12,026 bases of DNA from a virus. The translations under genes were made by a program, and so were the position numbers. Location: the IMG/VR virus record IMGVR_UViG_3300031565_005162; one strand, 5' to 3'. Below the pieces are notes generated by a model. It was not told where the DNA came from. It saw only the letters and a program-made list of their open reading frames with translations, and searched no databases. Of this stretch, positions 10,675 through 10,834 are shown piece by piece. Positions within the stretch are counted from its first letter, which is position 1; each line of letters starts with the position of its first letter.

Positions 10675-10834
10675 TGGACCTGTGCAGATTCGAACTGCGT
10701 AACAGGACGATTCCTGTTTTTGGCTTCCCTTTAACCGCTAAGTTAAAGTTATCACCATCTCGGATGGCTTTTTACTCCCGTGAAGGAGGACGTCTTAACC
10801 AACGAAACCCTTTTCCAATACAAGGATCAGGCCC
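10675..10834 (-). tRNA. atypical approx 160-nt tRNA-like locus (tRNA with an approx 80-nt insertion or intron, or a pseudogene)
   Basis: Minus-sense 5' GGGCCTG-AT-CCTT-GTATTGGAA-AAGG.. (acceptor 5' strand plus D-arm-like hairpin). The 3' end is ..CAGGA-ATCG-TCCTG-TTA-cGCAG-TTCGAAT-CTGCa-CAGGTCC-A, a T-arm plus acceptor 3' strand complementary to the 5' strand over 7 bp with one G-U. No convincing anticodon arm was identified in the roughly 90 nt between them. Confidence 0.35.

Follow-up and report, generated by a model that had tools for sequence, protein, structure and literature searches.

A conserved 160-nt tRNA-like RNA gene in a phage tRNA array, with termini resembling those of a phage transfer-messenger RNA

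INTRODUCTION

What is encoded by a 160-nt locus that has the two ends of a tRNA and no anticodon arm between them? Such an element lies at positions 10675 to 10834 of a 12,026-nt stretch of viral DNA (IMG/VR record IMGVR_UViG_3300031565_005162, referred to in full as the window), which is part of an uncultivated phage genome that is probably large. An earlier note, made from the sequence alone, had proposed three candidates: a tRNA into which other sequence has been inserted, a tRNA carrying an unusual intron, or a regulatory RNA that resembles a tRNA. All of the features described there are present when the minus strand is read, and we number the element along that strand (position p is window position 10835-p).

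Here we report that the locus is a real, conserved RNA gene. The last of the three proposals comes closest. The locus is conserved, shows a compensatory change, and has termini in common with a phage transfer-messenger RNA (tmRNA). Phage-encoded tmRNAs are known, and the usual tmRNA has a body of ~300 nt made up of pseudoknots and the tag. In the element, a compact hairpin body of ~110 nt around an invariant 66-nt core stands in for that body. We argue that the element is probably a shrunken tmRNA relative that has kept the tRNA-like minihelix and lost most of the body. The fuller reading, that it is a tmRNA-derived alanyl tRNA-like RNA acting on trans-translation, would in our judgment have about an even chance of being correct.

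RESULTS

The element is a conserved RNA gene

The element opens and closes with a 7-bp terminal helix (GGGCCUG/CAGGUCC) followed by the discriminator A73, which is A160 of the element. This helix had been called perfect; all seven pairs form, but pair 3:70 is G.U and the helix is not wholly Watson-Crick. The corrected pair is its most informative feature, pointing to alanine and tmRNA identity. G3.U70 and A73, which the earlier note had missed, are the determinants for charging of tRNA-Ala and every tmRNA by alanyl-tRNA synthetase (AlaRS) (PMC3968760). CCA is not encoded by the gene, in which A160 is followed by CAA. At position 8 the element has A (C in locus L088, described below) where tRNAs typically have U, and at position 10 it has C.

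The D-arm-like hairpin noted earlier is present as CCUU-loop-AAGG. A stem of 3 to 4 bp can form in all three sequence variants (those of the window, L088, and L006), and the register 10-13/24-27, CCUU-GUAUUGGAAA-AGGG, is the only one that pairs in all of them. Its loop contains UUGGAA, and the hairpin has no UCGAC. The T-arm GCAG-UUCGAAU-CUGC likewise stands as described, at positions 137 to 151, with the added correction that its fifth stem pair is mismatched (C.A). It is separated from the D-like hairpin by ~110 nt of hairpins, not the ~90 nt first estimated, with no anticodon arm among them. The CAGGA-AUCG-UCCUG hairpin reported in this interval forms part of the 7-bp stem of hairpin 3 (positions 117 to 134).

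The minimum free energy (MFE) of the element is -54.5 kcal/mol (z = -3.2), and none of 200 shuffled sequences folds as well. Given the T-arm, ~5% of shuffles offer a partner for the terminal helix (7/7 pairs, at most one G.U, 100 to 320 nt upstream), and the helix alone is marginal evidence. We consider it real because the same strands bound the tmRNA of locus L076, are unchanged in L088, and in L006 carry a C4-to-U change that retains pairing as U.G.

A metagenome scan for the shared 3' terminus recovered the diverged copy in L088, which belongs to the same lineage as the syntenic 43-kb contig L091 and L103 (99.7% identical to each other). Window and L091/L088 copies of the element are 92.5% identical (160 versus 161 nt), compared with 76 to 90% for the tRNAs of the array, 70 to 82% for open reading frames (ORFs), 78% for a GOLLD RNA, and spacers that cannot be aligned. 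Twelve alignment columns differ between the window and L088 copies. Six of these fall in five base pairs, and all five are still paired: in hairpin 3, A120-U131 becomes G-C (a double compensatory change) and C119-G132 becomes U.G; in hairpin 2, A92-U101 becomes G.U; U81.G111 becomes U-A; and U12.G25 becomes U-A in the 10-13/24-27 register of the D-like stem. The remaining six columns, including one inserted base, are unpaired. Not one of the 66 positions from 26 to 91 differs, compared with 17 to 22% of those in the segments on either side (P ~2e-6, for a background divergence of 18%).

A protein-coding reading was rejected: the gene tolerates an indel of 1 nt, neither the start nor the end of the antisense ORF agrees between the lineages, and the sense frames are rich in stop codons. 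The absence of any tRNA score from covariance models had been named beforehand as grounds for dismissing the locus as a chance match. That score is indeed absent, but conservation, the compensatory change, and the shared termini show that the locus is no chance match.

The invariant core contains CCUCCUU/GGGAG, the 10-mer GUAAAAAGCC, and GAUAAC. CCUCCUU lies at positions 46 to 52 (window 10783-10789, minus strand) and is partly paired with GGGAG a few bases downstream. It is the same 7-mer as the anti-Shine-Dalgarno end of 16S rRNA; the match could be chance (~1% for one given 7-mer in 160 nt, judged post hoc). The 10-mer also occurs in Escherichia coli ssrA, which we treat as possibly a chance match.

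A third copy, in L006 (L006:1-272), joins a diverged 5' third (GGGUCUG, with a 3-bp D-like stem CCU/AGG) to 3' two-thirds identical to the window, and recombination has therefore occurred within the gene. This copy implies a third, unsampled allele. The sequence upstream of the element in L006 also differs from the window, with no tRNA-Leu(UAA) there. Comparison of the window with L001 is uninformative on constraint in the element, because all differences fall in a 335-aa gene.

Outside these copies, the element has a narrow distribution. Covariance model R1 found it in this phage clade only, with weak matches at L037/L038:7921-8040 (wobble-rich helix, E ~0.05). In near and distant searches of GenBank phages, neither the element nor the whole window was matched, nor was the L076 tmRNA. 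Exact or degenerate DNA patterns for the 3' end, acceptor plus T-loop, upstream tRNA-Leu, and core returned from IMG/VR only the unrelated tRNAs of L066, L067, and L069, or L076. Synteny through the 144-aa and 335-aa neighbors led to large nonsyntenic families without the element. The families of the 92-aa and 51-aa ORFs held only the L088/L091/L103 lineage, and more distant contigs were without the element. It is likewise absent after tRNA-Leu(UAA) in the L102 lineage. Neither the invariant core nor the 3' end of the tRNA-like domain (TLD) was found in GTDB genomes, among which no bacterial genome has this TLD terminus.

Termini shared with a phage tmRNA

Loci were fetched through homologs of the 586-aa ORF of the window and scanned with Rfam. 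L076:6200-6631 (IMGVR_UViG_3300029288_000071) is a genuine tmRNA of 432 nt (RF00023, 71.5 bits, E ~1e-25) with a typical tag, AEQKSAFTFEDALAFVSQNEFALA followed by a stop codon, ending in NEFALA. This tmRNA starts with GGGCCUGA and ends with GCGGUUCGAAUCCGC-A-CAGGUCCA; the element also starts with GGGCCUGA and ends with GCAGUUCGAAUCUGC-A-CAGGUCCA. The two RNAs match at 30 of 34 terminal positions (9 + 25). Over the same positions, the best of 195 distinct tRNAs from all loci matches at 24 (a tRNA-Ala), with a mode of ~16. The sole difference in the T-stem, GCGG-UUCGAAU-CCGC in L076 versus GCAG-UUCGAAU-CUGC in the element, is compensatory (A-U to G-C between them). All three copies (window, L088, and L006) have G3.U70, and A73 is likewise kept.

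Position agrees as well. In L076 the tmRNA belongs to a tRNA array and lies on the same strand as the 586-aa homolog, 3.4 kb upstream of it; in the window, the element is 2.7 kb upstream of the 586-aa ORF. Infernal tRNA and tmRNA models had been proposed earlier as a check; both gave no match on the element at E ≤ 10, but the suggestion of tmRNA was a step in the right direction. Coordinates of the element and its parts are collected in Table 1.

TABLE 1 Features of the element and its upstream neighbor in the window
Feature	Window positions	Strand	Basis
Whole tRNA-like/mini-tmRNA-like RNA gene, 160 nt	10675-10834	-	Sequence, fold, 92.5% conservation in L088/L091
Acceptor 5' strand GGGCCUG, element 1-7	10828-10834	-	Same 5' end as L076 tmRNA, GGGCCUGA
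Acceptor 3' strand CAGGUCC (153-159) and discriminator A160	10675-10682	-	Same 3' end in L076 tmRNA
D-like hairpin, element 10-27, stem CCUU/AGGG (10-13/24-27)	10808-10825	-	Pairs in 3/3 variants
Invariant 66-nt core, element 26-91	10744-10809	-	0/66 differences between two lineages
Long irregular hairpin 1 (fold A), element 28-77	10758-10807	-	MFE fold
Hairpin 2, element 87-106, 8-bp stem CUUUAACU/GGUUAAAG, loop UAGC	10729-10748	-	Both folds
Speculative mRNA-like remnant, UUA-ACU-UAG	10738-10751	-	Analogy with L076 tmRNA and upstream-sequence rule
Hairpin 3, element 117-134, 7-bp stem, loop AUCG	10701-10718	-	Compensatory change in L088
T-arm, element 136-152, GCAG-UUCGAAU-CUGC (137-151)	10683-10699	-	C.A mismatch at base
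tRNA-Leu(UAA)	10841-10927	-	6 nt upstream of element

Internal fold and evidence against a tmRNA origin

Two folds of the interior have equal energy. Fold A, the MFE structure, places three hairpins between the D-like stem and the T-arm, while fold B, obtained with RNAalifold, has a helix 26-31/108-113 that closes a 76-nt body of four small hairpins. The G111A change is compatible with both, and positions 28 to 77 hold no variation with which to choose between them. Hairpin 87-106, hairpin 117-134, the T-arm, and the acceptor are common to both folds and are supported by variation.

Two tmRNA hallmarks were found, namely, G3.U70 with A73 and a T stem-loop next to the 3' strand of the acceptor. 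They do not establish the element as a tmRNA under the RF00023 definition, a covariance score being absent as well, and a number of observations weigh against a tmRNA origin. RF00023 and other tmRNA models gave no match on the element at E ≤ 10 in a scan covering 381 nt around it, and tmRNA mode of ARAGORN (-m), even at very low thresholds, gave only a nonsensical call that overran the element. In contrast, the TLD-only tmRNA of mycobacteriophage DS6A, which we located at L098:28478-28557 (80 nt), does score on RF00023 (34.7 bits). The interior of the L076 tmRNA has no alignable similarity to that of the element, and homology therefore rests on position and on ~34 nucleotides at the termini. 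In the ~30 kb of this phage that could be examined, no smpB gene was seen.

Structure raises further objections. The position of a long variable arm is where helix H2 leaves the TLD in tmRNA (PMC3968760); at this position the element has a closed local hairpin (117-134), with no long-range H2 abutting the T-arm, and helix 26-31/108-113, which would be long-range, stops short of that hairpin. The canonical tmRNA D-loop is reduced and stemless, with the consensus ...GGaUUCGAC, and is needed for SmpB binding (PMC3968760), whereas the element has a D-like hairpin in its place. Tools for nested structures predict no pseudoknots; by eye, a 4-bp UCAC/GUGA pairing between loop and junction is possible, in the invariant region.

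No convincing tag frame was found. Upstream nucleotides U(-5)A(-4) set the resume codon of tmRNA (PMC3968760), for which AUAAAU followed by GCA in L076 may be compared. By analogy, U84A85 would set a resume codon at U89 and the suggestive reading UUA-ACU-UAG (Leu-Thr-stop), whose stop codon would lie in the hairpin 2 loop; the same site in L088 reads UUA-GCU-UAG (Leu-Ala-stop). Even in this best candidate, the resume codon, UUA, does not begin with G and just two codons precede the stop, and an Ala codon, GCC, after GUAAAAA opens a frame without a stop codon.

The comparative sample is also small, with two independent full-length sequences plus one chimera (L006). A shuffle control with two alignment rows was uninformative (268/500), and the invariant core could have arisen by recent gene conversion instead of selection, L006 showing that recombination occurs in the gene.

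Alternative explanations

A stable RNA of the T4 species 1 (RNAC) type is an unlikely explanation, though one that deserves serious weight. Such an RNA would be processed through acceptor/T-arm mimicry and have a function unrelated to trans-translation, perhaps aiding the processing or stability of the array, diverting host nucleases that target tRNAs, or serving through its core as a guide or sponge; its tmRNA-like ends would be convergent, or would have been gained when it recombined with a gene for tmRNA or tRNA-Ala. T4 rnaC shares the architecture: it is a 139-nt RNA in the T4 tRNA cluster with a canonical T-arm, an imperfect terminal helix, long hairpins, and no anticodon arm. Its role is still unknown (PMC3014915). 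The failure of the element on tmRNA models and the within-gene recombination documented by L006 fit this explanation, as does the invariant core, whose CCUCCUU/GGGAG hairpin suggests a sequence-specific function of its own. Set against this, model R1 gave no match in the T4 tRNA region, and there is no sequence homology to rnaC or rnaD. G3.U70 and A73, needless for a pure RNase P handle, are exactly kept in all variants. At its termini the element is much closer to a genuine tmRNA than to any tRNA, and its genomic position equals that of the L076 tmRNA. We know of no link between T4 rnaC and tmRNA.

Improbable, in our view, is a class II-type tRNA whose anticodon loop is interrupted by an insert or intron of ~69 to 76 nt that is spliced out or disrupts the tRNA, although this covers two of the proposals in the earlier note. 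Fold B gives just this skeleton, with 26-31/108-113 resembling an anticodon stem and 117-134 a variable arm; the neighbors of the element are class II tRNAs (three Leu and Tyr); and insert-bearing tRNAs are common in the phage group (L001:8257-8370, L079, L077, L071, L067, and L066). ARAGORN calls the element in intron mode (-i) only, as Phe(AAA) with a 69-nt "intron," and does so in both lineages. That call is forced, however, with the intron at the non-canonical position 31/32 and the anticodon reading A34-A-A, and an alanine identity set combined with a class II body and a Phe anticodon would cause mistranslation. RF00005 does not match the element at E ≤ 10, while it scores five insert-bearing tRNAs of 112 to 149 nt (L066, L067, L071, L077, and L079) at 44 to 58 bits; its failure here is therefore not due to an inability to bridge inserts. 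Position 8 is A or C and not U, position 10 is C, and neither a 7-nt anticodon loop nor a UGC, GGC, or CGC anticodon in context was found in the element. The "intron" would moreover hold the most conserved sequence of the gene, and we know of no bacterial splicing mechanism for such an insert.

Deletion, one at a time, of every 55- to 99-nt segment produced 78 ARAGORN calls with more than 12 mutually inconsistent identities and no unique solution. A tRNA with a group I intron was rejected: the insert is at most ~76 to 110 nt, too short, as the earlier note had judged, for a group I core (P3-P8) of at least ~200 nt, and no Intron_gpI or other ribozyme match was found at E ≤ 10.

Decidedly improbable is a decaying remnant, in which a large internal deletion left a nonfunctional tmRNA pseudogene in the array. 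A remnant would account for the failure of all tmRNA and tRNA models, the lack of a convincing tag frame, and the narrow distribution (absence in the L102 lineage after tRNA-Leu(UAA) and in IMG/VR and GTDB searches). It would not be expected to be the best conserved feature of the syntenic array (92.5%), to keep its size in two lineages, or to hold an invariant 66-nt core with G3.U70, A73, and the T-loop intact, and all of its changed pairs are still paired, one by compensatory change.

An orphan tRNA 3' fragment beside unrelated sequence, or a small plus-strand coding gene (ORF 10674-10844), is exceedingly improbable: the ~5% chance of a terminal helix given the T-arm and a mechanical 56-aa plus-strand ORF coinciding with the element are outweighed by the conservation of both helix strands and their occurrence in the L076 tmRNA, the fold z score of -3.2, the frameshift, by an indel, of the L088 antisense ORF, which has another start and end, a core without synonymous-site variation, and the placement of all other genes on the minus strand.

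Proposed function

For the tmRNA-derived reading, three features make up the retained minihelix: an acceptor stem bearing G3.U70 and A73, a base other than U at position 8, and a T-arm of canonical form. An acceptor/T-arm stack suffices for RNase P, tRNA 3' processing, and CCA addition, and G3.U70 with A73 suffices for recognition by AlaRS. We therefore expect this RNA to be processed as tRNAs are and to become alanylated. We infer its transcription, processing, charging, SmpB binding, and effect on trans-translation as follows. The element would be transcribed together with the neighboring tRNAs, excised by RNase P and tRNA 3'-end enzymes that recognize the acceptor/T-arm stack, supplied with CCA, and charged with alanine by AlaRS. 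The alanyl tRNA-like RNA would then engage SmpB, EF-Tu, and stalled ribosomes, and might allow the phage to disturb host ribosome rescue or to take it over.

The most likely outcome, by analogy with what has been proposed for DS6A, would be competition with or modulation of host tmRNA-SmpB. That the element is instead a working 160-nt rescue RNA, the smallest tag-encoding tmRNA known, templating Leu-Thr or Leu-Ala after Ala, is something of a long shot. The D-like stem and helix 26-31/108-113 with the core would in that case fill the space that SmpB takes in canonical tmRNA, and the phage would free ribosomes without marking proteins for proteolysis.

Genomic context

The window holds eight tRNAs by ARAGORN and Rfam (four Leu, two Glu, Tyr, and Pro), and all of its other genes are on the minus strand. 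The element starts 6 nt past the 3' end of tRNA-Leu(UAA) in a same-strand array. This tRNA also precedes it in L091 and L088, and the two probably share a precursor transcript. Promoter-like sites lie upstream of tRNA-Tyr, at 11251-11294.

A GOLLD RNA occupies window positions 5150-5630 (minus strand; RF02032, 163 bits), with a tRNA-like sequence inside it at 5486-5557 (minus strand; RF00005, 39.4 bits); the L001 copy also has an embedded tRNA-like sequence (L001:13230-13300, 43.5 bits). At 976-3435 (minus strand) is an 819-aa protein with major-vault-protein shoulder and repeat domains (E 6.6e-25). The gene is 1.7 kb from GOLLD, and the pairing recurs in the diverged L091 (16040-16279, plus strand, and 13318-13792). 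No paper in the library searched combines "GOLLD" and "major vault protein"; a vault-like shell protein adjoining a giant structured RNA in a phage seems to deserve its own study. A SiaC-family protein and several ORFs without assigned function complete the window.

Window and L001 are identical from 9900 to 11800, and 171 differences lie in the region of the 335-aa gene, a weak radical-SAM match (window 8885-9900 versus L001:10545-11544). Their GOLLD regions are merely 75% identical. These genomes are mosaics that have exchanged blocks. Identical or near-identical contigs are present in several ENA, JGI, and Logan metagenomes.

Other noncanonical RNAs in phage tRNA arrays

A structural scan for orphan pairs of T-arm and acceptor found several ARAGORN-negative genes of 112 to 149 nt in related phage arrays, and such arrays therefore hold more noncanonical RNAs than are annotated. 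One is in the same phage: window 11973-12026, which runs off the end, corresponds to L001:8257-8370, a second tRNA-like gene negative in ARAGORN and Rfam (114 nt; acceptor UGGCAUA/UAUGCUA, T-arm GUAGG-UUCGAAU-CCUAC). Some 44 nt lie within a CAGACC/GGUCUG stem at its anticodon-loop site, and ARAGORN -i reads it as Leu(GAG) with a 37-nt intron.

Default ARAGORN misses tRNAs of 112 to 116 nt at L079:9628-9742, L077:9777-9892, L071:1523-1634, and L067:12670-12783, which RF00005 scores at 49 to 58 bits. L079 and L077 have in common an insert of ~40 nt in the anticodon region (ACUUUUCGCUU.UGGCA.AU.AAGUUCCUAU), and inserts of this type may form a family of short inserts or introns in phage tRNA genes. 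A 149-nt tRNA that ARAGORN does not call (RF00005, 43.9 bits) lies at L066:9479-9627, on a viral contig of high GC content; its D- and T-arms are canonical, its acceptor has G3.U70, and 76 nt are inserted in its anticodon loop. An unrelated phage array has tandem truncated tRNA-like units between normal tRNAs (L069:2316-2429; GUGUAACGG.AGCA...GGUUCGACUCCG twice). Finally, L080:3525-3821 (identical in L081) is a bacterial class A RNase P RNA (RF00010, 148.8 bits) lying within an array of 34 tRNAs on a viral contig.

The element itself was matched neither by ARAGORN in default mode nor by Rfam, whether at gathering thresholds or at E ≤ 10, and in the 381-nt scan no tRNA, tmRNA, intron, or ribozyme family matched it. 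Reduced tmRNA forms are nearly invisible to standard annotation.

DISCUSSION

Comparison with known RNAs places the element between several classes. With tRNA-Ala and class II tRNAs (RF00005) it has in common G3.U70/A73, the T-loop UUCGAAU, GG in the D-like loop, and a hairpin like a variable arm; it differs in having no U8, no 7-nt anticodon loop, and no Ala anticodon in context. T4 rnaC is likewise an RNA of ~140 to 160 nt in a phage tRNA cluster with a T-arm, a terminal helix, and hairpins instead of an anticodon arm, but its terminal helix is imperfect and without G3.U70.

The L076 tmRNA has the same acceptor helix with G3.U70, the same A73, and A at position 8. Its T-arm is the same bar one compensatory pair, it too has no anticodon arm, and it occupies a site upstream of the same 586-aa gene family. 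In contrast, the element is 160 nt long rather than 432 and has no recognizable H2, pseudoknots PK1 to PK4, or standard tag ORF. A D-like hairpin replaces the unpaired UCGAC D-loop, a closed hairpin stands where H2 leaves the TLD, and RF00023 and ARAGORN do not detect it.

tmRNAs without a coding sequence (CDS) and tmRNAs with 2-aa tags exist (PMC11915505). The latter, for example in Fermentibacterota, would resemble the element in having two codons before the stop if the U(-5)A(-4) rule applies; they are, however, full-size RNAs with Ala-Ala tags and G-starting resume codons, whereas the resume codon of the element would be UUA (PMC11915505).

Comparable reduced forms are the TLD-only tmRNA known from mycobacteriophage DS6A, similar to a molecule that inhibits tmRNA, perhaps by titrating SmpB (PMC4131195), and the CDS-less organellar tmRNAs. 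Like these, the element would be a shortened derivative that keeps G3.U70, A73, and the T-arm without a normal tag. The DS6A RNA has little beyond the TLD, in which the UCGAC D-loop survives, and an H2a stub still flanks its T-arm; with its conserved 110-nt body, the element has twice that length and shows no similarity to it beyond generic TLD features. Because the DS6A RNA still scores 34.7 bits on a model that the element fails, the element is the more derived of the two. The locus would then represent a second way in which a phage, here a large uncultivated one, has arrived at a mini-tmRNA; this form is more derived, and Rfam and ARAGORN both miss it. If it is charged and binds SmpB or ribosomes, it would offer a natural minimal scaffold for what trans-translation requires and an example of a phage manipulating ribosome rescue, the proposed role being, as for DS6A, interference with host tmRNA-SmpB (PMC4131195, PMC11915505).

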